Assembly (NCBI GenBank): GCA_050273025.1
Contig: CP158635.1
Coordinates: 17,174,001 to 17,238,000 of the forward strand
Direction: 5' to 3'
Length of the DNA stretch: 64,000 bases
Source: Cenococcum geophilum
Taxonomy: Eukaryota
Part shown: positions 1-45,427 of the stretch, one piece after another
Layout: every line of letters begins with the position of its first letter
Numbering within the stretch: the stretch's first letter is position 1
Translations under genes and position numbers: made by a program
Notes under the pieces: generated by a model
Database searches by the model: none
Told to the model about the DNA's origin: nothing
Seen by the model: the letters and a program-made list of their open reading frames with translations, nothing else

Positions 1-451
1 ATACCGTTAAACTAATCCGTAGGAGTAGCTCTATAATCCATTAATATATCTACCCTATTAGCCCCTATAATGTTAAGTAGAAAGTGCCACTAAACGGGTA
101 ATATATTAATAATTAACTTGCCCGCCCTTACTATAAATATAACACTAGTTAACTGGCGGACGCCTATCTAAACGCTAGCTAGAGCATTTGCTAAGTGGAT
201 ATTACGCCCAGTAATAAAGGAAAAAAAGGTTAAAGTTATTATAGAGTATTTATAGGACTGGGGATAGTCCTTTAGCAAACTTTCTTTAGCCTAGCTATAG
301 TATAGTACTAGTAAAAGATAACACTTAAAAAAAAAGAAGGTAAAGGAGCTTATTATTACCCTTTTAGGGGATAAAGAAACCCGTAATATAATTAAGGAGG
401 CTATAAATATTTATTTAGAACTAGTTAATATAGTTATAAATATCCTTTATA

Positions 452-877
452 TATTACGGACGCTTTAAGTACAATGTTATAACTACTTAGAGAGGAGTTG
501 GAAGAAGCTAGTTAGTTAATATAGGTACGGACCAAGATAGAACCCATAGAACTATATAATGAGGAATGGTAAGTAAGTCACATAATAGTTAAACGTATTA
601 GCTGCGTTAAATAAAAGGGACGTCACGTTTAATATAAATAAGACGTACATTACGTATAAGAAGGATTTTATAGGAGTACGGTTATATATTTAAGGACCCT
701 TAGTCCCTACCTAGATAGTTCCTTCCTTATAGTAATTCTTAGAATATAATTGGAGTTAATCTATTAGGCAATCACTCCACCAGTTATTATTACGTTGTTA
801 ACTTTTATACTTGTATTTCCTACACACCTAGCCTAATAACGAGCCCATCGTAGATCTTGCTATAAGGTTCCGTTACA
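452..877 (+). repeat. 5' LTR of Gypsy A1
   Basis: tattacggacgc...ggttccgttaca; direct repeat of 7983-8408. Confidence 0.96.
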
Positions 878-921
878 CAATTACTACCTAGTTACGGTAT
901 TAATATAAGAAGTTAAATAAT

Positions 922-3900
922 ATGCCACTAAAAGCAGCTACTATAACGCCATTAACGGCAGCAACTACTTTAAGGATAGGAGGTGATACTAATATAGTAA
1001 ATACTAACTTACAGTAACCTGTGACGGTTGGATAGCTATAGGAAATAGTTAACTAGCTAATAGCTAATAATATAGTGTTAGAAGAAAGACTTAACGGAAT
1101 AGGAGCAGTAAAGATTAAGCTACTATTAATTAAGAGATTTATAGGGGAGAGGTTAAAGCTTAAAGGATTCCTTACGCAGATATACTTTAAGGTCTTATAA
1201 GAGGGAGTAAAGTTACCTATACCTGTGGATCGGATAGCCTATACAGGACTATTCTTATTAGAAAAAGCACTTAAGTAGTTTAAATTTTACCTTACGGAGA
1301 TATAGGTAAATAGAATGACGACCACTAACTAAGACGTGCGATTTATGTTCTTAAGTTAGGAAGGATTCGCAGAATAACTTATACAGATATTTAGAGACCC
1401 GGAAGAAACAACTATAGTAAAAAGAAAACTCTAGAACCTTATACAATAAACTTTAGTAATTAAGTATATAATATAGTTTTAGACACTAGTAATATAAGTA
1501 GAGTGGAATAATAGGGCGCTTATAGTATAGTATAAACAGGGACTTAAGGCTAAAGTTTAGGACGCGATTATCCTAATAGAAGATATAGATACCCTAAGGG
1601 AACTAATAAATTAGGCGATTAAGATTAATAATTAGATCTACTAAAGGGAATAGGCTAAGAGAGGCTAGGATAAAGTTCTATAGTTATATAAGGCGCAGAG
1701 TATATAATAATAAAAGCTAAGTTAGAAACTATAGTATAGTGTAGAGCTAATAGACCTAAATAGCACTAAAGAAACCTATAAGAAATAAAGCAAACTATAG
1801 AAACCTAGAGGATAAGAATTAAGTAATTAAAGGTCTAAGGAGCAGAGGCTAAATTAGGGATCTTAATAGTAGAAGATATTTAGGCGGACTCTATAGTAAG
1901 AGAAATAGTTTAAAGAAGGAGCTTATATAAATTGCGGAAAATAGGGTTATTATATTAGAGACTATAGAAGTGGATAGAGTTGCTATATAGTAAAGGGTAT
2001 AAGACTAGTAGATAATATATATATATAAAGGGACGATAATATGCTATAAGGAATAAAAGAATGTTTAATCTAAAGTTTTATGTTTTATTATAATAACGCA
2101 TACTAAATTTATAAGAACGCTAAGTATAGCGTAAGCTATTAGCTATAAGAGCTAATATCTATAGGATATAAAGGAACTAATAAACTAGTTCGCAGATCGG
2201 ATATTAAGGACAATAAATTTAATTTAGGCGAAATATTCCGTAATAATAAGGTAATAAGGGCTGCTTACTAGGAGCGAGTAGACCTTAGAGATATTATACT
2301 AGAGGTAGAGGATAATTCCACTATAAAATAGGGAATATTAGTAGGAATTAAAACCCTACTAAATACGATGTCTATCGCTTTATAAGACGTAAGAGAAGTA
2401 GGACAGTAAACTACTTCGGCACTTAATAAAGGTAAAAGGCTAAAGGCTTAAGATTCTTATAGCGAGATAAGAGATAACTAAGATTCTTAAGACAAGATAA
2501 GGTAAGCTTAAGGACCTATAATAGATAATAACCGATAGAGTAGAGCAGCAGCTTAGTTTAAAAATATACGAATAAGCTTAGGATGGAAGTTCCTATAAGC
2601 ATAAGATTCTTAAGATAAGATAAGTAAGATTTAAGATTCTTAAGACAAGATAAGAACACTAAGTAAGCCTAGTTAAACTAAGGCTAGAGCTAAGCTTAAG
2701 TTAGAAGCAAGCTCAGGATTAAAGAGCCTAAGGGGTTAAGAATTTGGAGTATAAATTAAGACACCTATAGATAAGAGGTAAGGAGCTTCTTTATAGATTA
2801 GAGAATCTGTAGCATAAATAGCAATTAGACTAGGAGACGAATATATAGACCTAGAGGATTTACTAGTTAAATAAAGTGTTTAGACTAAAGATTAAAAAGT
2901 TAATACTAGGATTAAGAAGTAAGATAACTTCGAAGATTAGAGCGTAAGGCATAAACTAAAAGAAACTATAGAAGAGTTTAGGCAAAGAATTATCATATAG
3001 TAAGAACAGAAACTAGACAAAAGATCTAGTATATTAGGACGTATAAAGGATAGAGTACTAGTATAAAGAATTACTAATAGACTAAGAATAGGTATACTAA
3101 GAGCTAAGTGGCTTACTAAATTAGAAAATAAAAAGGATCTAGGGATTCTAACTAGGTTTAAGAAACGATATATAAAGGGCTATTATAATGTAGTAATAAG
3201 AAGATACTTCCTTATAGACAGACTATATATACTCTAGCAGCTATATTAAAAGTGGTATAGGTAAAGGCATAATAATAAGTAGGAAGATTTCTATATATAG
3301 TTGGATGAAAAAGTTATTTAAGACTACCCGATTATAGAGAAGGCCATAACGCATATTAAAGGAGCCTTAATTATAATATTAAAGGATCTAAAAGAATAAT
3401 TAGAGGACTAGAGAAGCAAGAGATGTATCTTAGTACCTATAAATAAAGTTATAATATTTAGATTAGTATAATAAAGGTTTAAACTTAGGGATAAAGATAA
3501 GCTAAGAGTTAACCTAAAGCACCTAGTATATTATACGTTATTATGGATTATATGCGTAGATAATATATATAAAATATATAAGAATCTAAAGGAAAAAAAA
3601 TCGGAAATACCCTATAAGGATATACTAGATAATAGATAAGCAATAGTATAGGAATGCTAAATATATATATAGATGGCATCCAGCAGAGGTCTAAGAGGAA
3701 GGAAGTTTAGTACTTTAACTAGGAAGATTCCTTACGGAAGAATGCTTAGACGGACAATAGTGGTGAAAATGCCTAGAAAACACGTATTTATAGTATATTA
3801 AAGATAAAAAGCGAACTAGGTATTAGCTAAAGAACGAGCTAAGTATACTAGGATTAAGCAACTAATAGTTAGGAAAAGTAGAGGCCTATAGGACTAAAGG

Positions 3901-6900
3901 GAGCCAATAGTAGAGCCTTAGACCCTTAAAGGAATTTAAGGATAATACCTAAATTTACGAATTAATTAGTAAGATTAGCAGTTTAAAGCGCTAATAGATA
4001 GTAGAGTAACGCGAAACTATATCTTACTAGTAGTAGTTAAGAGAATAGAACTACCTTATAAATAAAAGGAGCAACCTTACTTATTAGTTATAATTTTAGG
4101 AGATCTAATAACCTATAGAGGAGGGATTATTAATCTTAAAATAGGACCTATTTAGATAACTATTAAAGGAAGATAAATTAAGATGTCTTTTAATATCCTA
4201 CTATTAGGACGGGATGAGGCAGTATTAAGTATACCTTAGTTATAGGAATACAATCTAAGGATTAATTAGATTATAGGTCAGGTTAATATTAGAGATACTT
4301 AACGCTGTAAAATACAATAATAAGCTAAGTTGGTATAGTACTAAGTAGGAGCAACCTATAAAGAAATAGAAAAAGGACTAAGTTATATATTAAAGAGATA
4401 CCATAAATACGGCAAGAAACTATGGTTACTAAAAAGTAAAAAGCTGTTAGAATATGCAGCATAGGACTATAAGATAGAATTAAAACTAGGAATAAGTCTA
4501 AGGTTCTTTCTAATCTATAAGCTTACTAAAAAAGAAGGTAGAGCATTAAAAGAGTTTATCTAAGAGAACTTATAAAAGGGATATATTAGACTATTATAGT
4601 CATTAGCAGGATATCCAGTACTATTTGTATTAAAGAAGAATGGTAAACTAAGGCTGTATATTAACTATAGATAGTTAAACAGTATTACTAGAAAGGATAG
4701 GTATTCTTTACCCTTAATTAGCGAAATCTAAGACCGGATAGGTAATATATAAATCTTTACGAAGATAGATCTAAGATAGGCGTACTATTAGATTAGGATT
4801 AAGGAGGGCAACAAATAAAAGGCAGCCTTTAGGTTAAAGAAAGGACTATATAAACTATTAGTTATATAATTCGGACTTATAAACGCACTAGTAACGTTCT
4901 AGAAGCGTATTAATAATATATTAGGAGAATACTTAGATAAATTTGTTATAATATATTTTAATAATATTATTATCTACTTAATAACTAAGGAAGAATACGG
5001 GGAATACGTTAAATAGGTCTTAAAGAGACTATAAGAGGAATAAATACTAGTAGCAATTAAAAAATACAAGTTCTTTACTAGAAAGATAAATTTTATTAAA
5101 TTTATTATTAAACTAGGCCAACTTAATATAGATCTAAAGAAGATTAAGGTTATAGTAAATTGGTAGGAACTAGAGAATGTTATATAGTTAAGATCGTTCT
5201 TAGGGTTTTGCAATTACTATAGGAGGTTTATAGCATAGTAGTTAAAGGATATTAAGCCATTTATAAGATTAATAAAGAAAGAAGAACTATAGGTATAGGG
5301 AAAGGAGTAAAGAAAACTCTTTAAGAAAGTTAAAGAGTTATTTACCTAGGAGCTAGTTCTTAAGATCTATTAACTAGGACTAGAGATAGTTATAGAGATA
5401 GATATATTAGATTATATACTAGGGGCGTGCTTTATATAAAGGCATTAAGATAGATAGCACCTAGTAGCATACTATAGTTAAAAGATAATACTACTAGAGT
5501 TAAACTATAACATCTATAATAAGGAGTTGTTAGGTATAGTTACAGCATTAAAGAAATAGAGAGCATTTTTATAAGGTATAGAGAAACTATTTATAGTTAA
5601 GATGAATTATAAAAACCTAATAGGATTTCTAATAACAAAGGAACTTAACTAAAGATAGGTTAGATAGGCAGAGATGCTTACGGAATACTATTTTAAGATT
5701 TAGTATACTAAAGGTATAGATAATACACGGGCAGATACTCTAAGCCGTAAAGCTAAACTATAAAATAAGGAAAAGCTATTAGGGGCTTTATTACGGAAAG
5801 ATATAGATAGATTAATTAGATATAATTATCTAAAAATTATAGTAACTTAAAAAGATAATAAACTAGAGAAAGTCTATAAGATACTAGAAAGCTTTTAGGT
5901 ATAAAGAATTCTAAAAGCATAGCTAGAAGATCTATAGATAGATATATACGAAAATTAAAAAGTAAAGTATATCCTAAAAAGCATAGCAGAGTAGTTTATA
6001 GAAGACTTCTATAAGGAACTAACTTAAGGACATAATAGAGCAACAGGCTTAGTATTAAAACTTTAAAAGGAGTATATTATTAACAGAATCTAGAAGATAG
6101 CTAGAAAAGTTATAAAGAAATATTTAGATTGCTAAAGAAATAAACTAATAAGGTATAAGCCGTATAGAGGGCTATAACCTATTAAAACACCAGAAAGACT
6201 ATAGGAGGTTATATTATAGGACTTTATTATTAAGTTACTAAAATTAAGAGATCCTATTACCAGATAAGATTATAACACAATCTTAGTAATAATAGATAAG
6301 CTTATAAAATAGGGATACTTTATAGCCTATACGGAAGAAATATTAGCGGAAAATATCGCTAGAATCTATATTAAAGAAGTATTTATAAGACATAGAGTAC
6401 TAAATAAAATTATATTAAATAGAGATCTAAGATTTATAGTAGTATTTTAGGAAGTATTCTTAGTAGAGTAAAGAATTTAAGCAGTAACTTCTACCGCATA
6501 CTATTTATAGACAGACGGTTAAATGGAAAGATTAAATTAGACACTAGAGCAGTATCTAAGGCATTATATTAATTATATATAGAATAATTAAGTATTACTA
6601 TTACTAGTTATATAGTTTATATACAATATAACACCTTAAGAAGGAATAGGTACATTATTATTTAAGGCAAATTACGGGTATAAGCTAAGAATATTATTAT
6701 TACTATAGTAAGTGAAGAAAACAAGTAGTATAGCTAAAGAAAGAATAAAGATATTAATAAATCTTTATATAGACCTTATGGAATCAGTAAAGAAAGTATA
6801 AGAAAGAATAAAAAAGTACTATAATACTAAGAGATCTAAGGGACCAGATCTTAAGGAGGGAGATAAAGTATAGCTACTACATAAAAATTTCAAGAGTTGA

Positions 6901-7287
6901 CGACTAAGTAAGAAGTTAGACTACGTTAAACTAGGACCTTTTAAAATTATATAGAAGATTTTACCGGTCACGTTTAAGTTAAACCTACTAGCCAAAATAA
7001 AGATCTACCCTATACAGCATATTGTAATACTAGAGCCAGTATATAGGAATATTAAGCCACTAGTTTATAAAGCAGATACGTATAGAGGATAAGAAGAAGA
7101 CAAATAGTAAGTATTAAAGATTATTAATTATAAGGACATTAACAACAAAACATGGTACGAGATTAAGTGGATAGGCTATACTAAGACTACCTAGGAGCCA
7201 CTAAAGAATTTAAAGAACGCTATAGGAAAGGTATAGGAGTATTAAAAGAGATTAGGTTAGGTAGTATTAATAAAGAAGGATTACTAA
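922..7287 (+). pseudogene. gag(-extension)-pol of Gypsy A1
   Basis: ATG at 922. Gag motif RF.GER.KLKGFLTQ (~1135-1180). CCHC knuckle ~1918-1965. Protease ALIDS.. ~3988. RT YR.LN..T.KD.YPLP.I ~4665-4720 and degenerate YLDD ~4953. RNase H, integrase (W.VI.WDFI.KLP ~6200-6240, HP.TDG..ER.N ~6500-6540) and chromodomain (YE.KW.GY...TWEP..NL ~7155-7215). Many RIP stops; end coordinate approximate. Confidence 0.92.
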
Positions 7288-7874
7288 AGAATAAGTTACC
7301 TAAGGGGGACCTAAAAAGAGTAGTTACCGAACTACTTAGATCTATTTCCTTCTCTATTAAAGGAGAATCTATTCTTTTATTACCTAGTTCCTAAAGACCT
7401 TATTAAATAAGCTTCTATTCCTTTAAATAAACTTTCTTATAAATATATTCTAAACGCTAAAGACAAGTATAAGCTAGACGCTAAGCTTTAAGGATATATA
7501 CGGACTCTTTTAAGGTACGCTAAACCTTAAGCAGCGCAGAGGCTAGTTTACTATTAAGCTTCGTAATAGTAAATTAAATATAAAACCCTAAGATAAATTA
7601 ATTAGGGAACTAGACGACTATTAAGGGTAATAGGTCGCGTATACTTAGCATTAGACGTAGAATAAATATCACACGATAAACGTATATTGGCGCGAGTATA
7701 TTTAGAATAAGAGGAGGGTTAGTAACTAGAAGGACTCGCGATCGTAATATAACTTAACCCCTCTTTTATATAACGAGAGTAAGGGATTGCTATTACTTTA
7801 CCGAGTAATAGTATTAAGGAGATGGTATAAAGGCGACGCTTAACCTAAGAGAGAGAAGAAATTGCTTTAGGTAT
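7187..7874 (-). pseudogene. Antisense accessory gene of Gypsy A1: Zn2Cys6-like cluster plus coiled coil, one inferred intron
   Basis: Consensus across the five copies: MPKA...LGE.M..PCSRCAKEGL.(C)......PSSCS.CT.AN...SCD. After a ~55-bp intron-like segment: ...RLQRLE..R.KVHSKEWKLI..GL.EL. Ends approximate. Confidence 0.65.
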
Positions 7875-7982
7875 TATAAGCAATAATATTAACTAAATTA
7901 ATTAGACGGATATTATACCTCTAGTAAATAACCTAGAAATGCTAGGTATCTTTAAGGATAAAGATAAAGAGGAGGGAGATAG

Positions 7983-8408
7983 TGTTACGGACGCTTTAAG
8001 TATAATATTATAACTACTTAAAGAGGAGTTAGAAGAAGCTAGTTAGTTAATATAAGTATAGACTAGGATAGAACCTGTAGAACTATATAATAAGGAATAG
8101 TAAGCAAGTTATATAATGGTTAAACGTATTAGCTGCGTTAAATAAAAGGGACATTACGTTTAATATAGATAAGACATATATTATATATAAGAAGGATTTT
8201 ATAGAAGTACAGTTATATATTTAAGGACCCTTAGTCCCTACCTAGATAGTTCCTTCCTTGTAGTAATTCTTAGAATATAATTAGAGTTAATCTATTGGGC
8301 AACTACTCCACCAGTTGTTATTACGTTGTTGACTTTTATACTTGCATTTCCTACATACCTAGCCCAATAACGAGCCTATCGTAGTTCTTACTATAAGGTT
8401 CCGTTACA
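7983..8408 (+). repeat. 3' LTR of Gypsy A1
   Basis: tgttacggacgc...ccgttaca, followed by the TSD ttata. Confidence 0.96.
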
Positions 8409-10738
8409 TTATAAAGAGCTTTATAATCTTTATCAGCAGATAGTTATTTTTAGCCTATAGAAGTTAAATCTAGAGCTTAAAGACGTTTAACTCTCGTAGA
8501 GCTATAAAGCAATTAGTTAATATACCCCTCTACTCTACTAACTAATAGAAGGATTATTGGCATAATTAAGAAGTAATAAATTACGAAATCCGTACTTAGG
8601 GTAGGTTATTCTTCTTATATTTATCCTTTTATTAGGCCGCGCTTAAAGCTTTACTAACTATTTTACTTAGCTTTTTAGTCTTTATTTTTAAGGTATAGGT
8701 ATAAAGCATTAAGTTCTATTACTACTTTATAAACTAGGGCTTATTAACGGATATAAGACGCTTAACTATTAGAAGATAGGATTAGCTAAACGCTTTAAGG
8801 AAGGTTATAGTACTAGCGGCGGATATACTGGCGCTAATATTGTTAAAGACTTACCTCCAATTAATATCTACTTTTGATAATATCTATATTATATATAACA
8901 ATTTTAATTACCTTAAGCAAACGTAATATTAGTTAATTGGAGATACTAGTGTTTTATATTCCTATACTACTGGAAAGCTTATCTATAGATTTTATATTCC
9001 CCTAGTAGCCTTCTTTAAAGTATACTATATAACTAAGTATAGCTTCGGATTAAGAATATTACTAAGGCACTAGGCAATATATATAATAGCGTTTAAAGTT
9101 AGATATCTATTTTTATTATTATAGATGCTCTCTAAAGTACGTATCTGGCTGCTATAAATAGTATTTTTAAATCTAACACTAGGCTTAAATATCCGCGTAT
9201 GCCTAAGATTAATATTCTGCTATTTATAAAGACAACCTATATAAACCTAGGCCCTATTATAGAGAGCGAGGCTTTTATAAATGGCAACTACTATATACTT
9301 AAGACGATCTTCCTAGAGCAACTACAGCTTAATTATAATAACGATTTTTAGGACTAATTATATCTAGTATACGGTAATTAGAAAACTATAAAGCTTATTT
9401 ATACCTATAAGCGGGAGCGGGCGGAGGCTGCGCTCTTATATAATAGCTACCGTTAGGTACTACCTATTCTAGGTCTTTAGCACCTTTAGTTAAACTTCCT
9501 ATATATAATTATAAGGACTTTCTTTAGTGGTAAGTAATATACGTAGTAGTACTCTACGCTCTATACTTATATAAACCACCTTAGGTAACGAAATATTCCT
9601 ATAGAGCGCCCTCCCTTTTACTATTTTAAGGAGCTAGTACTATATAGTTTTAATACCTATATTATTGCACTCTTCTTAATATATATCCGCGATAGACTTA
9701 ATATCTATAAAAAAGGTGCGGTTAAAAGATACATTAAATTCTTAACGCCTAAGCAGTTTCTATAGCATATTAAGGATATCTATATAGCGGGTTTTAGCTT
9801 TAAAGTCGGCCGTAAGGCTAATAAATTAGTTTCTCCGCAGCCCTCTGCCCGCGGAGGTTCTTAAATTATAAATTAATTATTTATAGTTCCTAACTCTGCT
9901 ACTATAAGCTAGCCCACTTAGATTGTTAATATAGAGTTCTTTAATTATATTTAGTATCTATAGGTGGTTAAAATATATAAAGTGTTAAAATATGCTATTA
10001 AGTATACGGATATCGGTCTTTTAAAACGTGTAATTACCCATCTTTGCCTTTACTTTACTAAATTAAGGAGCAATAACTATATATCTAAAATAATGTACTT
10101 CTAAAGGTTAGTTATAATAGAGGCGTATAATCTAGTACTTTAGTAGGCCATACTTATAAACGGGCTAATTAATAATTACGGAGAGCCAAATAGCTTTTTT
10201 AAAGCTGATTAACTTAATAAACTACTAAATCTTTAGCTAAAGGAGTTACTCTAATTACGCGGAAACTTGACCTTTAGAGTAGACTCTCTATTTAGGTAGA
10301 GTGTTCTTACTATAAGTTATACTAGACCTCTTTATACTAAGTTTAAGGATGCGTTTAGTAAGCGGATAATATCCAATTATATAATTAAGTCTTCTGCGGT
10401 TAATATCCAGTCCCTTACGGATATAATTATGCGTTAGCATATGCGGGACGTTAGGTTTAAAGCACCTACTATTTTTTAACTTAGATTAGAGCGGCTCTTA
10501 TAAGGCGGTATTACTAATTTTAATATGCGGATGTCTTATATTAGCAGTTTACTATATAACCCTTATAAAGACGGATTTAATAAGGCTATAGATAATATGC
10601 CAGAGGACTTTTAAATACTTAGGCTTATAGTACGTTTCTATCTTTATATTAAGTAAGTTCTTTTTTATTAATATTAACTCTAGCTAGTGTATAATCTTCT
10701 TAATGCGTAGTATATAACGTAGTAGTTAGCTATTTTAT

Positions 10739-14630: not shown

Positions 14631-14759
14631 ACTACCTTATATACGCTTATTTATAACGCGTAAATCCTTTATAGTTAAGTTACTACTAATTAAAGTAAGT
14701 GGGCGCTGTCTAGTTAACTTGCGAAGTAATATTAATATAGAATTACCGCTTAATTAAGG

Positions 14760-15741: not shown

Positions 15742-16019
15742 CATCGGCAAAATATTGTCCCTTGTAAATGACCTCAGCTGCTAGAAGTTGGCGTCGTTAG
15801 CGGGCCATTAAGAGCATTAACCAACTTAACAAACCAGCCTATGTCGAGTTTATTTAACACGCAGCCTACGCGCAGCCTGCGCATAGCCTACGTAACCTAC
15901 GCAACCTACGCAACCTGCGCAACCTATATAACTTATAATTTTAGATAATAAAGGCTACTTTAAAGCCGTTTATAAAGCTATTAAGATAAATTATATATAC
16001 TTCTTTATATAATCTATTA

Positions 16020-16410
16020 TATCTACATCTGCTACCTATCTATATTGTCTACCTATCTATATTACCTACCTATCTATATTACTTACCTATCTATATTACC
16101 TACCTATCTATATTACCTACTTATCTACATCGCCTACCTATCTATATTATCTACCTGTCTATATTATCTACCTATCTATATTACCTACCTGTCTGTATTA
16201 CTTACCTATCTACATTACCTACCTATCTATATTGTCTACCTATTTACATTATCTATCTATCTACATCGCCTACCTATCTACATCGTCTACCGGTCTACAT
16301 TACCTACCTATCTATATTATCTACCTGTCTGCATCGCCTACCTATCTACATTGTCTACCTATTTATATTATCTACCTATCTATATTGCCTACCTATTTAT
16401 ATCTGCCTAT
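16020..16410. repeat. CTAC-based minisatellite (ctacctatctacatta, ~16-bp unit)
   Basis: Directly visible; also at 37230-37393, 43475-43735, 25020-25115, 44205-44295 and 46295-46470. Confidence 0.95.
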
Positions 16411-26733: not shown

Positions 26734-26738
26734 AAGGT

Positions 26739-32700: not shown

Positions 32701-34694
32701 TTAAATAGAGATCTAAGATTTATAGTAGCATTTTAGAAAGTGTTTTTAGTAAAGTAAGGAGTTTAAGCAGTAACTTCTACCGCATATTATCCGCAGACAG
32801 ATAGTTAAATGGAAAGGTTAAATTAGACGCTAGAGCAGTACCTAAGGCATTATATTAATTATATATAGAATAACTGGGTATTACTATTACTAGTTATATA
32901 GTTTACATATAATGTAACACCTTAAAAAGGAATAGGTATATTACTATTTAAGGTAAATTACAGATATAAGCTAAGAATATTGTTATTACTATAGTAAATA
33001 AAGAAAACAAGTAATATAGCTAAAGAAAGAATAAAGACATTAATAAATCTTTATGTAGACCTTATAGAATTAGTAAAGAAAGTATAAAAAAGAATAAAAA
33101 AGTACTATAATACTAAGAGATCTAAGGGACTAGATCTTAAGGAGGGAGATAAAGTGTAGCTACTATATAAAAATTTTAAGAGTTAACGACTAAGTAAGAA
33201 GTTAGACTATATTAAACTAAGACCTTTTAAAATTATATAGAAGATTTTACCGGTTATATTTAAGTTAAACCTACTAGCTAAAATAAAGATCTACCTTATA
33301 TAGTATATTATAATGCTAGAGCTAGTATATAGAAATGTTAAGCCACTAGTTTATAAAGCAGACATATATAGAGGATAAGAAGAAGATAAATAGCAAGTAT
33401 TAAAGATTATTAATTATAAGGATATTAACAATAAAATATAGTATGAGGTTAAGTAAATAGGCTACACTAAGACTACCTAGGAGCTACTAGAGAATTTAAA
33501 AAACGCTATAGGAAAGGTATAGGAGTATTAGAAGAGATTAGGTTAGGTAGTATTAATAAAGAAGGATTACTAAAGAATAAGTTACCTAAGGGGGACCTAA
33601 GAAGAGCAGTTACTAAACTACTTAGATTTATTTATTTCTCTATTAGAGGAGAATCCGTTCTTTTATTACCTAGTTTCTAAAGACCTTATTAAATAAGCTT
33701 TTACTCCTTTAAATAAACTTTCTTATAGACACGTTTTAAATACTAAAGACGAGTATAAGCTAGATGCTAAGCTTTAAGGACATGTGCGGACTCTTCTAAG
33801 GCACGCTAAACCTTAAATAGCGTAGAGGCCAGTTTACCATTAAGCTTTGCAGTAGTAGATTAAATATAAGACCCTAAGATAAATTAATTAGGGAACTAGA
33901 CGACTATTAAGAGTAATAGGTTACGTATATTTAGCATTAGATGTAGAATAAACGTTACATAATAAATGTATATTGGCGCGAGTGCATTTAAAATAAGAGG
34001 AGGGTTAGTAACTAGAAGGACTCGCAATTATAATATAATTTAACCCCTCTTTCGCACAATAAGAGTAAGGGATTGCTATTACTTTACTAAGTAATAGTAT
34101 TAAGGAGACGGTATAAAGGCGACGCTTAATCTAAGAGAGAGAAGAAATTGCTTTAGGTATTATAAGTAATAATATTAACTAAATTAATTAAACGGATATT
34201 ATACCTTTAGTAAATAACCTAGAGATACTAGGTATCTTTAAGGACGAAGATAAAGAGAAGGGAGATAGTATTACGGACGCTTTAAGTATAATATTATAAC
34301 TACTTAGAGAGGAGTTAGAAGAAGCTAGTTAGTTAATATAGGTATAGACTAGGATAAAACCCGTAAAACCATATAATAAGGAATAGTAAGCGAGTTATAT
34401 AATGGTTAAACGTATTAGCTATATTAAATAAAAGGGACGTTATGTTTAATATAGATAAGACGTATATTATATACAAGAAGGATTTTATAGGAGTATGGTT
34501 ATATATTTAAGGACCCTTAGTCCCTACCTAGATAGTTCCTTCCTTATAGTAATTCTTAAAATATAATTAGAGTTAATCTATTAGGCAACCACTCCACCAG
34601 TTATTATTACGTTGTTAACTTTTATACTTGCATTTCCTATATACCTAGCCCAATAACGAGCCTATTGTAGTTCTTGCTATAAGGTTCCGTTACA
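26739..34694 (+). mobile_element. Ty3/Gypsy family A copy 3 (complete), inserted in the helicase gene
   Basis: 426-bp LTRs at 26739-27164 and 34269-34694. TSD AAGGT at 26734-26738 and 34695-34699. gag ATG at 27209. Colinear with A1. Confidence 0.97.
33473..34160 (-). pseudogene. Antisense Zn2Cys6-like/coiled-coil gene of Gypsy A3
   Basis: Homologous to 7187-7874; retains Cys2 (tgt gcg aaa) and Cys5. Confidence 0.62.
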
Positions 34695-34699
34695 AAGGT

Positions 34700-36770
34700 A
34701 ATAAACTTATCTAAATTATTACCAAGCTAATTATAATTATAATTAGGTAGGTTTTTCTTAAGCGCCTTATAGCTAGTTATATACCAGGCGCAGCTATAAA
34801 GGGTAGTAATTTACTTATTAGATATAACATAGCTTAAGGTTAAATTCTAAATAGCGTGCTAATATTTCTTCTCTATTTAGTTATAGAACTAGTTTTTTAT
34901 ACTTATAGTAAAGGCCTTTTAGTATATCTTTCTTGGGATCCCCTCTATATACGGCTTGCGGATATTAAACTCTTTAAAAGCCCATAAAGTAGGATTATAG
35001 TTAAAGTAATAACCCTAGCTACTAGTGGACGGAGACTGTTCCTTATAGTTTTCTAATATAATTTTTTATAAGTAGCCCTTTTCCTTATTTATAAGAGCAT
35101 ATATATAATAAAAGAAAGCTGCTCTTTTCTTAGCTTTAGTTTTTAAGCGCTATACTAGCTTCTTTAGTAGAATATCTATAAGTAGAACTACGGATATTCC
35201 ACCTAGACTAAGCTCTTGCCCTATATTAAATACGGACGGATTAAAATTAGCATCGCTATATATAGACACTCTTAAAGATATATTGCTAGCAAAATTAGCA
35301 GCCCCGTCCTTTTATAGCACCTATCGCTTAATATAATATTTACGGCTAAGTTAACTTAGCTAAAATCGGAAGGCTCTACTAGTATAACCGCGATTTTTGG
35401 CTAGCCTAGTAATATCCTTATATAGACCTTTATACTAATCCTTAATTAGAAATATTACCTTACCTACTTAACTACTACTACGAGCACCGCGTCTAAGCCG
35501 TTACCATATTATATTAATAGACTTATCTTTATATATATAATACTACGCGATATAGTTAAAATTAGGAATATTAGCGCTATAGGTAAGCGCGTTAAAGGAG
35601 AGCAAAATACGGATTTCTAAGTTAGACTTTCTTAACTCCTTATATAGTCTGTCTTTATTTATAATAGCTAACGATATATAATAAAGCTAAATAGCTCTTC
35701 TAGCCTACGCTTTTTAGTACCCGTAATATACTAACTATAAATAAATTAAATCCCTCCCTAGTAATATTAGGTCCTTTAAATTAAAAAAGATAATTATCTT
35801 TAGGATCCAGTAGGGAGTTAGCGTGTATTAGATTCTCTACTTAGTGAATATAGCGGTATACGCGCGGTCTATAATAAAGTATAAGCTCTTAAAGGACTTC
35901 TTATTTCTTCGCTTAACATATTCTCTAATAATTAATAGATCTGGCTGGTTAATTAATATCCGTACTATATTAATATTATTTTAAAAGCCCGCTAACTTTT
36001 AAACAGTCTTAAATATTATATTATTAAGCGTTACAGTATAAGCAAACTAAGGCTTCCGCCTTAATAACGACCGCACTTTCTATAGCTGTGTATACGAATT
36101 CCGGAACGAACCCCCCTAATTAGCTATAAGGTGCACCTTATTAATTACTACTAAGCTAATATGTGTATGGAAGGTAGGGTTAGTAAGGGTCTTATAAAAC
36201 CTTTTACTAACTAATAGCTCCGGCGATATTAAAATATAGGTATATACTCTAGTGCGGATTTCCTATAAAAAACGTATGGATATTATTTTAGCGTATATAT
36301 AAACCGGCCTTATTTTAGAAAGCTCCTTAATCTTTATCTTCTACTCCACGCTAATCGCATTAAGTAGTAAAATAATAATTACTACTAAGGCCCGAAGAAG
36401 ATATGGCATTACTTATATTATTATACTCTTACTAAATAAGGTTTTTGCAATAAGTATTATATCTTTTTCCTTAAATAGCAGCCACCTAAGGGCTTTAAGC
36501 TGCTCTACACGTCCGCAATACGGATATAAAAAAGTAATAGCCTTATTAACCTTACTTAGCTACCAGGCCTTACTCTCTTTGTAAAGCATAAGAAGCTAAT
36601 CTTAAAAGTCCTATAGCTATTATTCCTAGTTTATTTTACGACTCCTTTAAATCTAATTATCCAACACTTAATACGGCCGCGGCTATTTTAGCACCTTATT
36701 TAACTTCCTCCCTCTCCGCTTAGTAGGTTTTAGTACTAGTATACAGTAGATCTGCTTAAATATCTATAAC
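34700..36770 (-). pseudogene. RecQ-like superfamily-2 DNA helicase (AcademH-type), RIP-degenerate
   Basis: Minus-strand motifs in order (RIP-reverted): I KD.ILIAKT.FGKS (~36425-36470), Ia II.PLNAI..EQ (~36340-36385), II VVIDEAHL...WG..FR..Y (~36090-36155), III PWFACTATL (~36025-36055), V IRILLS.DAL..GA.IP (~35560-35615), VI WQRLGRGAR (~35480-35510). These are followed by a Zn-binding-like C.R...Y...CC.NCNP (~34990-35080). Start approximate. Confidence 0.88.
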
Positions 36771-36952
36771 TTAGTAGTTAGCGTGTAATAAGGTTTAAAG
36801 GGAGATTATCTAGCGTAATATAGATATTGTATATCCACCTAGCTATAGTAGGTGCCGTAAGGTACCTATTATAGGTCTATACGTATTTTATATATATTAG
36901 CTAGCGTTAGCTAGCGTTTAATAAAATTATATATAGAGGTTTACGCTTTTAA

Positions 36953-39900
36953 TATCGGCAAAATATTGTCCCTTATAAATGACCTTAGCTGCTAAAAGTT
37001 GGCGTCGTTGGTGGGCTATTAAGGGCATTAACCAACTTAATAAACTAGCCTATGTTAAGTTCATTTAACATATAGCCTACGCGTAGCCTATATATAGCCT
37101 ATATAACCTACATAACCTACGCAACCTGCGTAACCTATATAACTTATAATTTTAGATAATAAAGGCTACTTTAAAGCCGTTTATAAAGCTATTAAGATAA
37201 ATTATATATACTTCTTTATATAATCTATTATATTTACATCTACTACCTATCTACATCGTCTACCTATCTATATTACCTACCTATCTACATTACCTACCTG
37301 TCTACATTACCTACCTATTTATATTACCTACCTATTTACATTACCTACCTATCTACATTATCTACCTATCTATATTATCTACCTATCTACATTTGTTGGG
37401 AATAAAGGCAAATGGTCACCATATAAGGCATATTGCCGTCACGTGTGGTAAGTTGCCGTTACGTGCGGCAAGTTGCTATCACGTGCCGCCGCGGCACTAG
37501 CGTAGTAAGGAACCTTAAGTTCCTTACCCCTTTCTTAAAGAAGAAAACAGAACAGAACAATTATTATACTATCTACGAACCGTAGCTACGTAATATCCCC
37601 CTTATATAACCAACACTAATTAGTGGTTAACTTTACTATTATACTATAGAGCAGCTAGGTATTCCACTAAGAAGAGATAAGCCACTATACCAGTGCTACT
37701 CGTGCTAAAGAAAGCTATCTTTTAAGGTTAGAACTGGTCCTAAACCTTAAATAGAACTCTTCTACGAATCTAAGGATTTAAAGGCTAAAACTGGTCCTAA
37801 GCCTTTCTAAGATTATAGATTCTTGCGTCCATTATATAGAATAACACGCTTTATAAGTCTTCGCGATTTAAGGCTAGAACTAGTCCTAAGCCCTATAATT
37901 GTAAATATACGTTATAAACGCGTACTAAACGATAAATATATATTACGAACGCGTACTAAACGACAATCCCTACACTAATAACACTTCCCTCCCTCTAAAA
38001 ACATGGCTATACCTACTTTAAACGACTAGGAAGACTTCTTACCACTAGGGGTAGCTTTATACGCGAAACTTATTAATAAAAATTAGGACGAATTTACCTT
38101 TAATATAATAACTTATACTGTAAAATAAGTTAATAGCTTTCTCCTATACCATATTATATTCTACTAAAGTAAATACTATACTAATATACAGCTATGGGAA
38201 TATTTTAGGGAGGATTTTATAGGATAGACCGCTAATACCTAGGCACTTAGCAATATTAATATTATTTAGGATTTTTAAGACTTCCTCCATAGGAATAGGG
38301 TATATATTACTAAGAACGGTAACCTAATTACTAGTAATATTTAGGCCGTTATTACTAGTATAAAAAAACTAGTATAGACGGAAGCTAAGATTATATATTA
38401 ACTATAGAAACCTAGAACTAACCTATATTCTTTAAAAGGCAACTTTAATTTAAAACGAAACCCCTAAAACGCTACTCTTCTACCTAAAGGTACTCTCCTA
38501 CCTAGAGGTACTTATTCTCTACCTCCGCCGCCTTTAGCTCCTTTACTCTAGCTAACTAGTAACCCTTTACTATAAGAAGTTATAAATCTAATAAAGGTAT
38601 ATTTAGATAAAAAGAAGAAGTTTAAAGAAGAATTATATGATATACTTAGAGTAAAACTATAGGTCTTCTATAACTGTTGCAATAAGGTTAGAATTTAATG
38701 CCACTAGTACCACCACGCTTTCTCCATTATGTTAAAGGGATAGGCAGTAATATTATATTATAACCATATTATGGGTAAAAACTATAGCTTTAATATAATG
38801 TTTTAGCTCACTAAAGCCCACTTTAAGACTAATAAGAATCGCTAACTTTATATATCTAAATAGCGAGAGACTATATTCTAGAGAGTTATTGCTTCTAACC
38901 TAACAAAGACTTATTTAGAGTGCCTTTAACTACTTTTTAATAAACTCTAAAAAATTTAATACGGACTTATCGAAACTTACTAAAATAAGAACAGCCTAAG
39001 GGACTAGGTTATTTTAGCATGCTATAGCGTTCCTAAGTATAACTTGGTGCTATATAAACCTATAGATATATTTAAAGGAGTATATACTAAGCTACGCTCT
39101 GCTATAGGTACTATAATACAAATATAAGAATCTTAACAGCTCTATACTAAAAGCCCTACCTAACTAAGCATTCCCAACTAATATGATTATAACTAGACTA
39201 ATTGAATATATAGCGGCCGTAGTAGGGAATACGGTAAAGGGTACAATTAACGTTAACTATAAGGTAATTATGGAGGTCCTTATGGAGGTTTATTTTAAAA
39301 TAATTGCTAAAAGAAGTGCTATGTTTGTAAGAAGCCAAATTACTAGTTAACTAGATACTCCCTTAATAAGCGAAAAGAGGCATATAATAAGTTCCGTTAG
39401 AGTATAAAAAATGTTAAAAATTATAAGGTTACTATAGCCTACTTTTAAAGCTTCCTAGTTTAATATAAAGGCGTAGAAAACCTTAAGGGTAAGGTTAATA
39501 AGACTAAATAGCTCCTTATAGATATGGAAATTGAGGACTACTTACCTAACTAATACTTTACTAAGTACGGTAAGGTAAATGGTATACAAACTATTGCTAT
39601 TCTTAATAACTAATCTACGCTCTATTTTATTACGAAGTTAGATATCTTTAATAAGCTAAAGGAGAGCTCCGCGTTTTCCTTTAATAATAGATACTCGGTA
39701 AATGTCTTCTATAGTATTATGCCGGATACTAGAGCCGTAGGAGTATCTATAGTAGGAGAACCTTAAGTTCGAGCCCTTTAGCAGCTTAATAGCTCTATTT
39801 AGATTAACTATTTAACGGCAGGCTAATACACAATTCGTTTTAGCAAAGGTACTACAATCTCTTTTGGCATAATTAGGGTTTAAACCCCCTTAGGGTATAT

Positions 39901-42900
39901 TACTTTTTACGTTGTTCCTACAAACACCCTATTTCTATTTTGCATTAGAGATATAGATAAACTAGGCGTTAAGCTTAATAACCTTAAGAATATGCTTATA
40001 TAGGGAGATAATTGGGTGCCTATTATACGTAAGTAGGGTCACCCTTAGCTACTCCTTTAATAACCAGAAAAGAGTGTTACTTAAAGCTATTTAACTAAGT
40101 TAGAGTTACGCCAACTATACCGTTGTTTTAGTTACCTATTAGTTCACTAATTACTTAGGGTTCTTTAGCAAGTAGGCTATAAAGTTAAGGTTAAGGTAAT
40201 TAAGCATCTTATAAAATACTGCTACTACTACTAAATAAACTAAAGGTCCCCTGGCCGATTTAAGTTCACCCTTAAAGATAACTATAACTTTAACTTCTAT
40301 ATTATTGTTGACGTTATATACCTTAGCGGCAAGCTAGTACTCTAAGTTGTTAACTTCTTAACCTCCTTCTAAGCCGCACAATTCTTAAAGGATATATTAG
40401 CTAGGAACGTATAGGATACCCTTTAGTTATACTAGATTAATATCTACCTAGGACCCCCTAATTAAATCGTCTATAATATAAGAAAGAACTTCTTATCTAT
40501 AGAGTTCCGATAATAAATAAAGGCAATGGTAATTGAGGTTAAGGAAGTCCCTGTTAAGGCATATAATAGTATTAAAAAAGTAGAGCGATATTACGCGCTA
40601 TTACGCCGCGTATATAAGATTATCTCTTTAGAACTAAAGGACGCTAGCGAAGAACTTATCTTATAAATAGCTATTAAAGCTATTAACGATTCCGCTGGCC
40701 TAGATAGACTTATACCTATATTACTAGTCTTTAGCGCCTACCTATAAATAACTAATAATTCTCTACTATCTCCCTCCGTTATACAATAAGCTAAGGCGAT
40801 TCGTAAGGTAATAAAGGAGGTGTAATGCCTCTATGCCATATACCAGGTTAATAATATACTAGGAATGAAAAATAGCCCAAATACCTTAACTACGCTTAAT
40901 CTGCCACTCTAGTCTAAAGTACGCATATAGCGTAAAAGGGGAGGATAGTTAGGCCTACATTAACTTATTGCAATTAATAGTTAAACTTGCACTATTTAGA
41001 TGCCTTACGGACCCACCTAATTTCGTTTAATTGTTATTAAGCCTTACTATAAAGATAACAATTCTAAGCCTTTATAGGATGCCCTAGAAGATACCCTAGA
41101 AGAGAACTACAATTAATATGCTTTAGAAGGCGACTATAATCCCGATACAATTGTAGTAGATACGCCACAACTATAACGCGGTAGAGGTTGCCCGAAGGGA
41201 TTATAAAATCGCTAACACCTTATTAATTTTAAAGAATAATTTATTGCCGCCATTAAGAATGAAGTTAAGTTATTAATGGCCTTTATAATAGCTAAAGAGA
41301 AGGCTAACTTTAAGCTCGCAAAACAGCTCTAAAAGGAAGGTCGTATTATAACCCTAGGAGCTCCTTTCTAAGCATCTAATAAGTAGGAGATCAACGGTCT
41401 TATTGTAAGAGGAGTCTTTAAATTTAAGAAATATAACCCTACTAAGTTTAATAGAGTTCGCATCTTTAAGTTAAGAATAGTTAATGAGATTAAGGGCAAA
41501 GCTACTAACGCCCTATTTGAGAAATTAAGGCTTATTATTTAAGGTTATAACAATAATAGCAAAGAGATAATTCTTATATAATCTCCTATGATTTAACGAG
41601 CTAGTTAGCGAGTTATTATTATATTAGCTCCCTCCTTAATAAAGAATAGAATAGCAGTTTATTTATAAGATATTACTTAAGCCTACACCCAATTAGAGAT
41701 GCACCTTTAGCGCTTAATATTAGCATACCTTCCGGAGTAAATTCGCCACCAGTATCCTAAAGACACGATTATAGTTATGCTTAAGCTATTATATAGAATC
41801 GCAAAGGTAGGAACTTACTAGTAGGCTACCTATAGTAAGCACTATAAAGAGAAGCTTTTAATAACTACTTCTATATTTGATCTTTACTTCCTTATTATAA
41901 CTATAGGAACCCTATTTAGAATTATTGGTATATAAACTAATAATATAATTATCTTAGGAGACGACTAATTCTTAGCTCTTAAAGAGGATAAGCTAGTAAA
42001 GGCAAATCTCATAACAAAGCTAAAGGAAAAGCTTAACTTAATAATACTATTACTCTTTAATAGATGTATCCTCTCCCTAAATAAGGATTCCATTGCTTTA
42101 CGCCAGAAGGGTTAAGGTAAAAAGATTAACGTTATTAACGTTAATTCCCTAAAGTAAGAATACGTGGAGTAACGCGCTCGCGAAGCTTATATTGCTTCTA
42201 TCTGTCAACCTAAGGCTTTATTTAATCTCTTTGTTGCCGCCTAACACTAGGAACTAACTAAGGACGACATTCTTGCCCTAAATAAACGTCTTTTCTAGCA
42301 AATAAACCATCTTAATTAGGGACTACTCTACGTGCCTATTAATCTTCCTACCGCTAAGCTCTTTATATTTGTTAATAAATCGTTTATAAATAATAAAGAT
42401 TTTAGCTCCTAGTTAGGATATAAGATTATTATCGCGAATAAATTTACTAGAGAGAATAACTTTATAATCTATAGCAATCTTATCTATTAGAGCTTAACTA
42501 AGAGTAAGCGCGTTATCTAAAGTATTTTAGCGTTAGAGATATATAGAATAGTTAGCGGAGTTAATATGGTAATTGTAATTGGAACTACCCTAAAGATAAT
42601 TATAGATTAACTTAAACTTCCCGTTATCCCTATAATCGTATATACCAATTTATTTTCCCTCTATAAGTGTTTAGTTAAGCTTAATACTACAAAGAAGAAG
42701 CACCTTATAATTGATATTATAGCACTTTAGTAATCCTACGAGCGTTAAGAACTCTTTAAGATTTAATAAATTAATGGCTAAGATAACCTAGTAGATGTAA
42801 TAACAAAGGCAAACCCAAATAAGGTACTAGAGACGTTTGTTAACACAAATACTCTATATATACGAGTTAAAGGTTAGGTTAAAAGGGAGTCCCTAGAAAT

Positions 42901-45123
42901 TTCTTAGTTATATAAGGTCTTAAGATATCTAGGAACTTTAACCGGCGGTTAAAGTTATTTAATTAGTTAGATTCTATAGACCCTAACTTAAACCAGCCAA
43001 TTAGGATTTTCCATCCCTAGGATAGAAAATCGCTATTAGCTCGCTTACCGCTAGCGCCTTAGCGGCCCTACTAATAAGATACCTACCCATAACTTATAAG
43101 TAAGAAAGCACTACGTGCTAAGAGGCAAATTTTAGGACAGTGAGACTTATATTACAATAGCAATAGTAAGTAAGGAGGATTAATTTTTGTTCCGCTAGTT
43201 AAGCGGTATATATATATAGATGGCAACTATAAAAGAAGAGTTGCTAGTATTAGGAATAAAGGCAAATAGTCACTATATAAGGCATATTGCCGTCATATAT
43301 AGCAAGTTGCCGTTACGTGCGGTAAGTTACTATCACGTGCCGCCGCGGCACTAGCGTGGTGAGGAACCTTAAGTTCCTCACCCCTTTCTTAAAGAAGAAA
43401 ACAGAATAGAACAATTATCATACTATCTATGAACCGTAGCTATGTGATATCCCCCTTATATAACCAATAACATTACCTACTTATCTATATTACCTACCTA
43501 TCTACATTACCTACCTATCTATATCGTCTACCTATCTACATTATTTACCTATCTGTATCGCCTACCTATCTATATCGTCTACTAGTCTGCATTATCTACC
43601 TATCTATATTACCTACCTATCTATATTACCTACCTATCTATATCGCCTACCTATCTACATCGCCTACCTATCTATATCGTCTACTTATCTACATTATCTA
43701 CCTGTCTATATCGCCTACCTATTTACATCTGCCTATAGTGTCTAATTTAATTCGGGGGAGAGGTCGGCCCGATTAAAGGCTCTAATTAATTTGAATCGTT
43801 CTCCATAGCCGTTCGCTGGCTATATATTCGAACAGTAGTCATCTAAGGTGCCTCCCTAGGAGGCCTTAATTCGATTTAATTCGGTAATAGGCTCTAGATT
43901 AATTCAATTAATCGATTAAATCATTCGTGGTGTTCGCTGGCTGGTTGTTCAAACGGTCGTCATCTAGTTCTAGTAACGGTCGTCTACTAGTTCTGGCGAC
44001 GGTCGTCTAGTTCTAGCGACGGTCATCTGGTTCTGGCGACGGTCATCTAGTTCTAGCGACGTTCGTCTAGTTCTGGCGACGGTCGTAGTTCTAGCGACGG
44101 TCGTCTAGTTCTGGCAACGGTCGTGGTTCTAGCGACGGTTATCTAGTTCTAGCGACGGTCGTCTAGTTCTGGCAACGGTCGTCTAGTTCTGGCAACGGTC
44201 CTCTCCTACCTACCTACCTGCCTACCTACCTACTTGTCTACCTACCTACTTATTTATCTACCTACCTACCTACCTACCTGCCTGCCTGCCTGCGTTAGTG
44301 TCTAGTTTAATTTAGGGGAGGAGTTGGCTTAATTAAAGGCTTTTATTAATTTAAATTGTTCTCTATAGCCGTTTACTGGCTATATATTTAAATAGTAGTT
44401 ATCTAGGGTACCTCCCTAGGAAGTTTTAATTTAATTTAGTAATGGGCCAATATTAAAGCTCTAGTTTAATTTAATTAATTAATTAATTAAATTATTCGTG
44501 GTATTTACTAGCTGGTTATTTAAATAGTTATTATTTAGTTTTAGCGACGGTTATCTAGTCCTAGCGATAGTTATCTAGTTCTAGTAACGGTTATCTAGTT
44601 TTAGCGACGGTTATCTAGTTCTAGCGACGGTTATCTAGTTCTAGTAATAGTTTTCTATTAGCTACCGTTCTAGTGCCTTCTAAGGTAGGAAGAATATAAG
44701 GAAAGGTAAAAAATAAGGTGGCTATAAAGGGGGTAACTTAGTAGAGGTATGTGCGGGGACCTAATATAGAGCTTTATATAGAGCCTCTATATATAGAGCT
44801 TCGCGTAAAGCCTTATATAGAGCCTTTATACGTAGAGCTTTATATAAAGCTTTATATAAAGCTTTATATAGAGCCTTTTAAGTATATAACTTAAAAATAA
44901 TATATTATATTACCTTAATTATATATTAAGGAATATATAAGTTAGTTAACTGCGTATTATTTAACTTTTAAATATATTAAGTTGGTTAATTATAGATTAA
45001 TTATAGGTTAATTGCGTATTATTTAACTTTTAAATGTATTAAGTTGGTCAACTGTATATTAATTACGCGAAACGCGCTTAATAATGTTAACTTAAAACCT
45101 AGCCTACGAATATTTTCCCGATA
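36953..45123. mobile_element. Non-autonomous CATC-terminus TIR element, copy 2 (~2.1 kb native, split by Copia)
   Basis: Left end tatcggcaaaatatt; right end aatattttcccgata. 2-bp TSD AA/AA. Colinear with copy 1. Confidence 0.87.
37394..43469 (+). mobile_element. Ty1/Copia LTR retrotransposon (complete, RIP-inactivated)
   Basis: 222-bp LTRs at 37394-37615 and 43248-43469. TSD ACATT on both sides. ORF from ATG ~38003: CYVC.K..CW...H knuckle ~39315, protease IMPDT.A...ST.G ~39715, integrase LH..FGH.S/C..CQ ~40115-40235, RT DI.QAY ~41668 and Q.DD ~41935, RNase H FVD.SF.NN.D.SSQLG ~42370. Order PR-IN-RT-RH. Confidence 0.95.
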
Positions 45124-45329
45124 AATAACGCGTTTTTTTTTAATGAAAATAATTATAAGACCTAAAAATACCTAAGTAATAAAAATAATATATTTTAAAA
45201 GCCTAGGTTCTGTTATATAATTAATTAACTTTAGGAAATAATATAAAATACTAGTGTTGAGTTATTTTAATATCCGCAACCTCCGCAACGCGGATATTGT
45301 TTACGCGCTTTACGAATATTGCGAAACCC

Positions 45330-45427
45330 GCTTAGACGTAATTCAGGTGGTGCACCACAAACGTAGTTAGTCACCCGCTTGCGGGCCGATTGACTCCGCA
45401 CCAACGAAATCACGTCTAAGCTTACTG
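45330..45427. other. GC-rich nested inverted repeat; candidate right terminus of the AcademH-like element
   Basis: gcttagacgtaattc (45330-45344) pairs with gaaatcacgtctaagc (45406-45421). Inner arms agttagtc/gattgact and cccgc-tt-gcggg. The terminus assignment is inference. Confidence 0.4.

Follow-up and report, generated by a model that had tools for sequence, protein, structure and literature searches.

A probable AcademH-type transposon, inactivated by repeat-induced point mutation, as the scaffold of a nest of insertions in Cenococcum geophilum

The question raised by this locus is what underlies a block of more than 45 kb of repetitive DNA in the ascomycete Cenococcum geophilum. The window analyzed here is a stretch of 64,000 nucleotides (contig CP158635.1, positions 17,174,001 to 17,238,000 of the forward strand). 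Its composition is ~30% GC, and no open reading frame (ORF) of at least 150 aa is found before 47.4 kb. A first-pass annotation, made from the letters of the window, had proposed a hidden AcademH-like helicase transposon as the scaffold of the block. Our results indicate that positions 1 to 45433 are most probably one copy of an ~11.24-kb AcademH-type class II (cut-and-paste) transposon, which was inactivated by repeat-induced point mutation (RIP) and later invaded by five elements.

According to self-BLAST and the reading of junctions, positions 1 to 45433 are made up of a host element plus five insertions, each with a target duplication, namely, long terminal repeat (LTR) retrotransposons A1, A2, and A3 and two copies of an unclassified TIR element, X (X1 and X2). 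After in-silico excision of the insertions, ~11.0 kb of host scaffold was left (1-451, 8414-15741, 26085-26738, 34700-36952, and 45126-45433). These five segments were joined by a script before alignment with sister copies found on metagenome contigs (L001, L002, L003, L007, and L008), all of which are uninterrupted. The joined scaffold gave one single high-scoring segment pair (HSP) with each of L001, L002, L003, and L007, over ~11,030 to 11,080 columns and at 83.5 to 87.5% identity; with L008, whose contig begins inside the element, one HSP covered 9,860 columns. All four junctions were colinear with the uninterrupted copies, with zero gap or indel at the join. Therefore, the segment coordinates of the first-pass annotation are base exact at the internal junctions; only the right end had to be moved, from 45427 to 45433, where the right terminal inverted repeat (TIR; 45414-45433) ends. 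The target duplications, the single HSP, and the gap-free junctions together confirm five nested insertions over a continuous scaffold of ~11 kb, and the inflation to over 45 kb corresponds to a fourfold enlargement by these later insertions.

The limits of the family were obtained by comparing the copies with one another and correspond to L003 8904-20141. A 20-bp TIR, TTACCTCAGCAAGCTCAGAC, is found at both ends; it was seen at seven left and seven right ends, including that of the window, where it shows two mismatches, both transitions. The copies with both ends on the contig (L003, L007, and L011) had 9-bp target site duplications (TSDs) in three of three cases: AGTGTGGCC/AGTGTGGCT for L003, AGAGAAAGA twice for L007, and TGAACGACC twice for L011. 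L011 and L006 are internally deleted derivatives in which both termini were kept. Base 1 of the window aligns to L003 9115; the first ~212 bp of this copy, and with them its left TIR and TSD, therefore lie upstream of the window. The TIRs and TSDs that had been predicted were thus found in complete sister copies, but the left end of the window copy itself is off the window. The first segment (1-451, + strand) carries the 5' part of the transposase gene, and the last one (45126-45433) carries the right TIR together with subterminal ATATCCGC/GCGGATAT repeats. From the 9-bp TSDs of the sister copies, the right TSD copy would be expected at 45434-45442 (AAATCACGC). The transposase-like and helicase genes were located within the same TIR-bounded unit in all five full-length sister copies. 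Both are intact ORFs in L014, an intact, diverged relative with the same left TIR as the family (at 42-61), so that their co-occurrence, as proposed, holds in other copies.

The remnant of the transposase gene (217-10599, + strand) is split by A1. A search for DUF6589 in Pfam had been suggested, and PF20231 (DUF6589) indeed matched the + strand of the window at ~9106-10261 (E = 1.4e-32). The core of the gene (9019-10599) contains 32 in-frame stops, with one frameshift near 9001-9019, and residues 67 to 286 of the N-terminal ORF of L014 align to window positions 217-8838 across the A1 junction (tblastn). The motifs reported earlier on this strand are present, but only in a RIP-degraded form (YNNFN for YDNFD, GNX.T for GDQ.T, and GLXH for GLWH). 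In L014, the DUF6589 ORF is in two parts, 287-1165 and 1092-2999, with a PF20231 match at E = 9.6e-73. The N-terminal ORF aligns to residues 26 to 282 of an 891-aa DUF6589 protein (E = 2e-21), and the two parts are therefore one gene. The intact protein closest to the window transposase is P0001 (65% identity), to which the L014 transposase is 61% identical; the 90% cluster of P0001 includes a hypothetical protein named Cenococcum geophilum 1.58, pointing to a host that is probably a Cenococcum-like Dothideomycete. Relatives (110 matches) were common in Ascomycota (Penicillium, Metarhizium, Fusarium, Geoglossum, Sclerophora, and Ascosphaera), with distant ones in Schizophyllum. Across 42 aligned homologs, D38-N39, G197-D198-Q199, and H233 were near-invariant and E473 and N476 were invariant; as a set, the putative catalytic residues D38, D198, and E473 are near-invariant.

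The fold of a DUF6589 protein was modeled with AlphaFold2 (predicted local distance difference test score [pLDDT], 85.8; predicted template modeling score [pTM], 0.87). The ten best Foldseek matches of this model in the PDB were all Hermes hAT transposase, although weak (E = 0.015 to 0.07). With VIA-align, which is independent of Foldseek, the best matches were Hermes (Z = 10.6, 299 aligned), Tn5 (Z = 9.5), and the P element (Z = 9.4, 300 aligned), followed by retroviral and Ty3 integrases, ISCth4, IstA, and Sleeping Beauty. The first 24 matches were all DDE recombinases, and RAG1 was found at Z = 6.0 with 324 aligned. We conclude from this model that the DUF6589 protein is predicted to adopt a DDE/RNase-H fold that includes a large helical insertion domain, a conclusion that concerns its fold, not its activity. 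The ESM Atlas, used as a source of leads only, gave look-alike clusters from Arthropoda, Cnidaria, Mollusca, and fungi, 26 of 30 of which were in the DUF6589 set.

The second gene encodes a RecQ-like superfamily 2 (SF2) helicase core with motifs I to VI in one frame (34700-36730, - strand), as recognized by tblastn with the L014 helicase and by motif reading. The L014 ORF aligns to 36730-35858 at 44% identity (E = 8e-55) and from 35818 across the A3 junction to 26730 at 32% identity (E = 1e-35), and the core in the window has 41 in-frame stops (19 + 22). The third scaffold segment (26085-26738, - strand), colinear with the uninterrupted copies, corresponds to the C-terminal tail region of the helicase, with the HSP ending at 26730. 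A remnant of the L014 ORF that immediately follows the helicase ORF on its 3' side (7712-8119) was found at 15355-15732 on the - strand (tblastn, 63% identity, E = 7e-34, 16 stops); it is possibly the helicase tail. The - strand helicase motifs described previously do align to the L014 helicase but are degraded (VVINKVH..NXGGSFRNSY for VVIDECH..NWGKSFRPHY). The four Cys of the zinc-binding-like stretch of the helicase all read Tyr in the window.

In L014, the helicase is an uninterrupted ORF of 1190 aa (8070-11642, - strand) with DEAD (E = 1.8e-13) and Helicase_C (E = 1.7e-9) domains. Compared with solved structures, it gave 38 matches, 37 of them to the RecQ family and the last one a weak match to an RNA helicase. 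E. coli RecQ was the best (E = 1.5e-20), followed by WRN, RECQ5, RECQ1, BLM, and RECQ4. At E <= 1e-30, far better than this best solved RecQ, 147 cluster representatives were found. Relatives came also from Metarhizium and Ascosphaera. Among 20 clusters of helicase relatives, four share their source and a contig of the same size (4420, 5587, 6302, and 14033 bp) with DUF6589 matches, which hints that the pairing of the two genes extends to lineages only 33 to 39% identical to L014.

The window copy is RIP-dead. In the biallelic columns of a six-copy alignment, 2756 transitions were counted versus 162 transversions; the commonest changes were G>A preceded by T (563) and C>T followed by A (471). 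The window copy had a TpA/ApT ratio of 1.67 and a (CpA+TpG)/(ApC+GpT) ratio of 0.37, the most extreme values of the six. This CpA>TpA signature and the stops in both gene cores bear out the earlier claim of a RIP-killed element.

Could the element be an artifact of the way it was recovered? If the block were an assembly chimera of repeats instead of a real nested locus, one would expect the region to be wholly repetitive, as it is, and the short-read contigs of four public runs cover it in small pieces only. The stretch 44900-46200 was repetitive in all four runs, and no contig spans it; in three of the four, loose contig ends at 45124 read into uninterrupted element, which shows only that X2-free copies exist. 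However, every insertion has a clean target duplication, and its removal restores the host element to the base, which is unexpected from misassembly and makes a chimera very improbable. Even less credit can be given to the idea that a host or telomere-linked RecQ gene stands beside an unrelated transposon fragment, the two being joined only by in-silico excision. Telomere-linked RecQ-like helicases are known in fungi, and the solved relatives of the L014 helicase are cellular RecQ proteins. Against this, independent copies at separate genomic locations have both genes between the same TIRs, with flanking 9-bp TSDs; the deletion derivatives L011 and L006 retain both termini; and the 147 cluster representatives at E <= 1e-30 outrank any solved RecQ. 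The helicase thus belongs to a TIR/TSD-bounded, multicopy mobile unit, and the first-pass view that it is neither a host nor a telomere-linked gene was upheld.

The reading that we prefer, an AcademH-type transposon, depends on the architecture of the element: it has TIRs and a 9-bp TSD, and it encodes a DDE-fold transposase and, separately, an SF2 helicase. These features support the proposal of an AcademH-like element in an ascomycete. The AcademH lineage of the Academ superfamily is reportedly the subject of Kojima 2020 (Mobile DNA 11:15). AcademX, with an XPG nuclease and a TSD of 3 to 4 bp, was rejected, as the TSD here is 9 bp and no XPG Pfam match at E <= 0.01 was found among eight L014 ORFs. 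KolobokH was also rejected. Its TSD is TTAA (4 bp), and the 9-bp TSDs of this family are of unrelated sequence; only DUF6589 was matched, with no Kolobok/THAP-type transposase. For MULE (Mutator-like element)/Mutator, there was no MULE or Transposase_mut match at E <= 0.01 among the L014 ORFs. MULE elements make TSDs of 9 to 11 bp, so the 9-bp TSD is compatible with them, and the fold alone leaves room for a distant MULE kinship. According to PMC10045372, TSDs are 9 to 10 bp for AcademH and 3 to 4 bp for AcademX, the difference being tied to the helicase versus the nuclease. PMC10799480 lists DEAD and Helicase_C as AcademH domains and, citing Kojima 2020, describes AcademH as a low-copy type with members in Basidiomycota, Ascomycota, and Mucoromycota. 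The type itself is therefore known and already reported in Ascomycota, and the statement in the first-pass annotation that fungal examples are mainly basidiomycete is outdated. In PMC5751038, Academ is reported at low copy in most fungal taxa, and its RNase-H domain was without a Pfam match in 2017.

A helicase-bearing DDE transposon of another or undescribed superfamily (MULE-like, for example), AcademH-like in architecture only, would fit the 9-bp TSD, which is not unique to AcademH, as well as the generic DDE fold matches, and the literature searches gave no link between DUF6589/PF20231 and Academ. We nevertheless consider it distinctly unlikely. Neither MULE nor any other named transposase Pfam family matched at E <= 0.01, compared with 9.6e-73 for DUF6589, and the helicase carries the two domains given for AcademH in PMC10799480. 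The animal-plus-fungus range of the ESM Atlas look-alikes, a lead only, mirrors that reported for Academ and offers indirect support, as do the abundance of DUF6589 relatives in Ascomycota and the helicase relatives from Metarhizium and Ascosphaera. Several points weigh against the AcademH-type reading or parts of it. The assignment is one of architecture, compared with published descriptions. A literature search for a paper linking DUF6589/PF20231 to Academ found none, and the terms PF20231, DUF6589, and Academ had zero occurrences in three supplementary files of PMC10799480. Foldseek gave no match of the DUF6589 model in the PDB at E <= 0.001. The window's own helicase frames, whole or in pieces, had no Pfam match at E values up to 10, because RIP composition defeats HMMER, and their identity as a helicase is suggested by tblastn to L014. 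Identical contig size is no proof of synteny for the more distant pairs, the left TIR and TSD of the window copy are off the window, and a role of the helicase in transposition is pure conjecture.

If the AcademH-type reading is right, the DDE transposase may bind the TIR and the subterminal repeats, excise the element, and integrate it at a 9-bp staggered cut. The element helicase could assist by unwinding or remodeling DNA at the ends or at the target. Such assistance would account for the long TSD that separates AcademH (9 to 10 bp) from the nuclease-bearing AcademX (3 to 4 bp), as given in PMC10045372. Host RIP would then have destroyed the window copy, after which the Gypsy and X elements would have inserted.

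The element also carries extra cargo genes, as had been noted; they are two tandem copies of a multiexon, Cys-rich gene on the - strand, also found as two tandem copies in L014. Copy A (10930-11950) has a Cys-rich exon at 11483-11950 and a coiled-coil-like exon at 10930-11334 (67 and 65% identical to L014 ORFs by tblastn). Copy B (12925-13947) was located by tblastn to the L014 ORFs and by self-BLAST. The tandem duplication, 10746-12668 and 12749-14631, is 73% identical. Each ~2-kb unit holds one gene whose introns are of the canonical fungal kind (donor GTACGT, branch CTAAC, and acceptor TAG). The Cys residues of the Cys-rich exon are spaced as C-x2-C-x6-C-x14-C-x2-C-x6-C, and the last exon is coiled-coil-like. 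Pfam matches stayed below the cutoffs, both for Zn_clus (E = 0.0037, 17.8 bits, cutoff 21) and for DUF3716 (E = 0.04, 14.3 bits, cutoff 22); in the ESM Atlas, again as a lead only, the top three were DUF3716 clusters (0.88, 0.86, and 0.86). A word-index search, in itself weak evidence, found no longer cargo homolog among 97 candidates. The cargo region is more alike between L014 and the window family (~82 to 94% locally) than the transposase and helicase regions are (~50 to 70%), which could come from exchange of the cargo module or from stronger constraint. Between L014 3044-8096 and window 10415-15733, the nucleotide identity of the cargo region is 81 to 82%, with ~65% in the transposase region. 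L010 (11998-21842) apparently has three cargo-type units, not two, as well as an additional insertion that follows the transposase gene; cargo copy number is therefore variable within the family.

Another feature of the family is a dispersed motif: GCGGATAT and its reverse complement (ATATCCGC) form the commonest GC-containing 8-mer of the element. L014 (42-12044) contains 39 exact copies versus 0.54 ± 0.69 expected from 200 shuffles, an excess of ~70-fold. Exact copies were fewer in L001 (28), the L003 element (16), and the window scaffold (13). When up to one mismatch was allowed, L003 had 71 sites, 63 of them inside the element, versus 16.2 ± 4.0 expected. Outside the element, the flanks, the LTR elements, X2, and the remainder of the window (~92 kb in all) had only four exact copies. 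Both strands carry sites, and within the transposase and helicase ORFs every reading frame is represented. One cargo intron has two sites; others belong to 24-bp tandem triplets located 3' of the cargo genes or to subterminal palindromes, of which ATATCCGC-AA-GCGGATAT, at the left end, is an example. A distant fragment, L012, has four copies in 1.5 kb. Sites common to L014 and L001 number 14; another 25 are exact in L014 but not in L001, and 14 are exact in L001 but not in L014. Conserved protein motifs, together with the close similarity of the cargo region, account for part of the positional match (14 of 39 exact, versus 21% for random 8-mers), which is therefore no proof of selection. The 8-mer is RIP resistant because it is without CpA or TpG; despite this resistance, it is densest in the unmutated L014.

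One speculative reading, which we regard as possible but rather unlikely, is that the family carries a self-marking system in which an 8-bp tag (extended T-GCGGATAT-Y), occurring about once per 300 bp, would be read by its own cargo proteins or by the transposase N terminus, its density being kept high with positional turnover in diverged lineages. Such a tag could bring in the helicase or transposase over the whole of an unusually long element, or it could protect the element from silencing. Zn2Cys6 proteins classically bind WGCGG cores and CCG-N4-CGG everted repeats. By analogy with such site rules, the 8-mer may be linked to the Cys-rich cargo proteins, with TGCGGATAT and the ATATCCGC-AA-GCGGATAT palindrome as candidate sites for these proteins or for the transposase N terminus.

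The five insertions themselves belong to two groups. A1 is a Ty3/Gypsy-type LTR retrotransposon (452-8408, + strand) flanked by the TSD TTATA at 447-451 and 8409-8413; by self-BLAST, its LTRs (454-877 and 7985-8408) are 90.8% identical, and Pfam found the RVT_1, RT_RNaseH, and SH3_Tf2-1 domains. A3 (26739-34694, + strand) is of the A1 family (90.9% identical), with the TSD AAGGT at 26734-26738 and 34695-34699. A2 (16777-24813, - strand; TSD GACGG), a further copy of this Ty3/Gypsy-type retrotransposon, lies inside X1. X1 (15742-26084) is internally deleted and has a 2-bp duplication, TA. X2 (36953-45125) is full length (8.2 kb), with an imperfect ~14-bp TIR and the 2-bp duplication AA. Both X copies have imperfect ~14-bp TIRs (CATCGGCAAAATATT...) and internal tandem arrays of 17 and 20 bp. 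No Pfam match to element X was found in six frames or in pieces. By eye, one X frame looks gag/protease/integrase/RT-like, with a CCHC-like knuckle and DTRA for DTGA; a retroelement-like frame would be odd for a TIR element. To the right, the insertion flank of the transposon (45434-48600) is repetitive in the public runs, and arrays of 4/8-, 12-, and 20-bp tandem repeats at 46263-48345 resemble those inside element X. A further - strand copy of an A1-type Gypsy LTR element (58661-63998) runs off the window, with an extra LTR-like stretch before it at 57720-58581.

Taken together, the locus provides an ascomycete example of a little-studied transposon type that is fully resolved in its TIRs, TSDs, and gene map, and illustrates how AT-rich isochores arise through RIP and nested insertion. 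It connects DUF6589, an uncharacterized Pfam family, with a DDE transposase fold and with a helicase-bearing TIR element, a link that would allow thousands of "hypothetical" fungal and animal proteins to be annotated as transposase. L014, apparently intact, is a candidate for activity testing, and the 8-mer and the tandem Cys-rich genes give a testable clue to the way in which a long DNA transposon might recognize itself.

Among known systems, the family is most like the AcademH lineage of the Academ superfamily: a TIR-bounded class II element that encodes a transposase and, as a second protein, an SF2 (DEAD/Helicase_C) helicase, makes a 9-bp TSD, and is present at low-to-moderate copy number in fungi, including Ascomycota. 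It differs from the AcademH descriptions in its ~11.2-kb length, its two tandem Cys-rich (Zn-cluster/DUF3716-like) multiexon genes, and its dispersed, element-wide 8-mer. With the hAT (Hermes) and P-element transposases, the DUF6589 model shares an RNase-H-like DDE core into which a large alpha-helical domain is inserted, whereas the sequence identity to Hermes and the P element in the alignments is only 7 to 9% and no hAT or P Pfam match was found; unlike hAT, this family has a 9-bp rather than an 8-bp TSD and an additional helicase gene. Finally, the L014 helicase resembles cellular RecQ proteins (E. coli RecQ, WRN, RECQ5, RECQ1, and BLM) in motifs I to VI, in the DExH...WG..FR signature, and in a C-x19-CC-x2-C zinc-binding-like stretch after the core. 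It differs from them in being encoded inside a mobile element and in having a long Ser/Gln-rich tail, and only its N-terminal lobe (residues ~80 to 287) aligns to the solved RecQ chains, while the C lobe has one weak RNA-helicase match.

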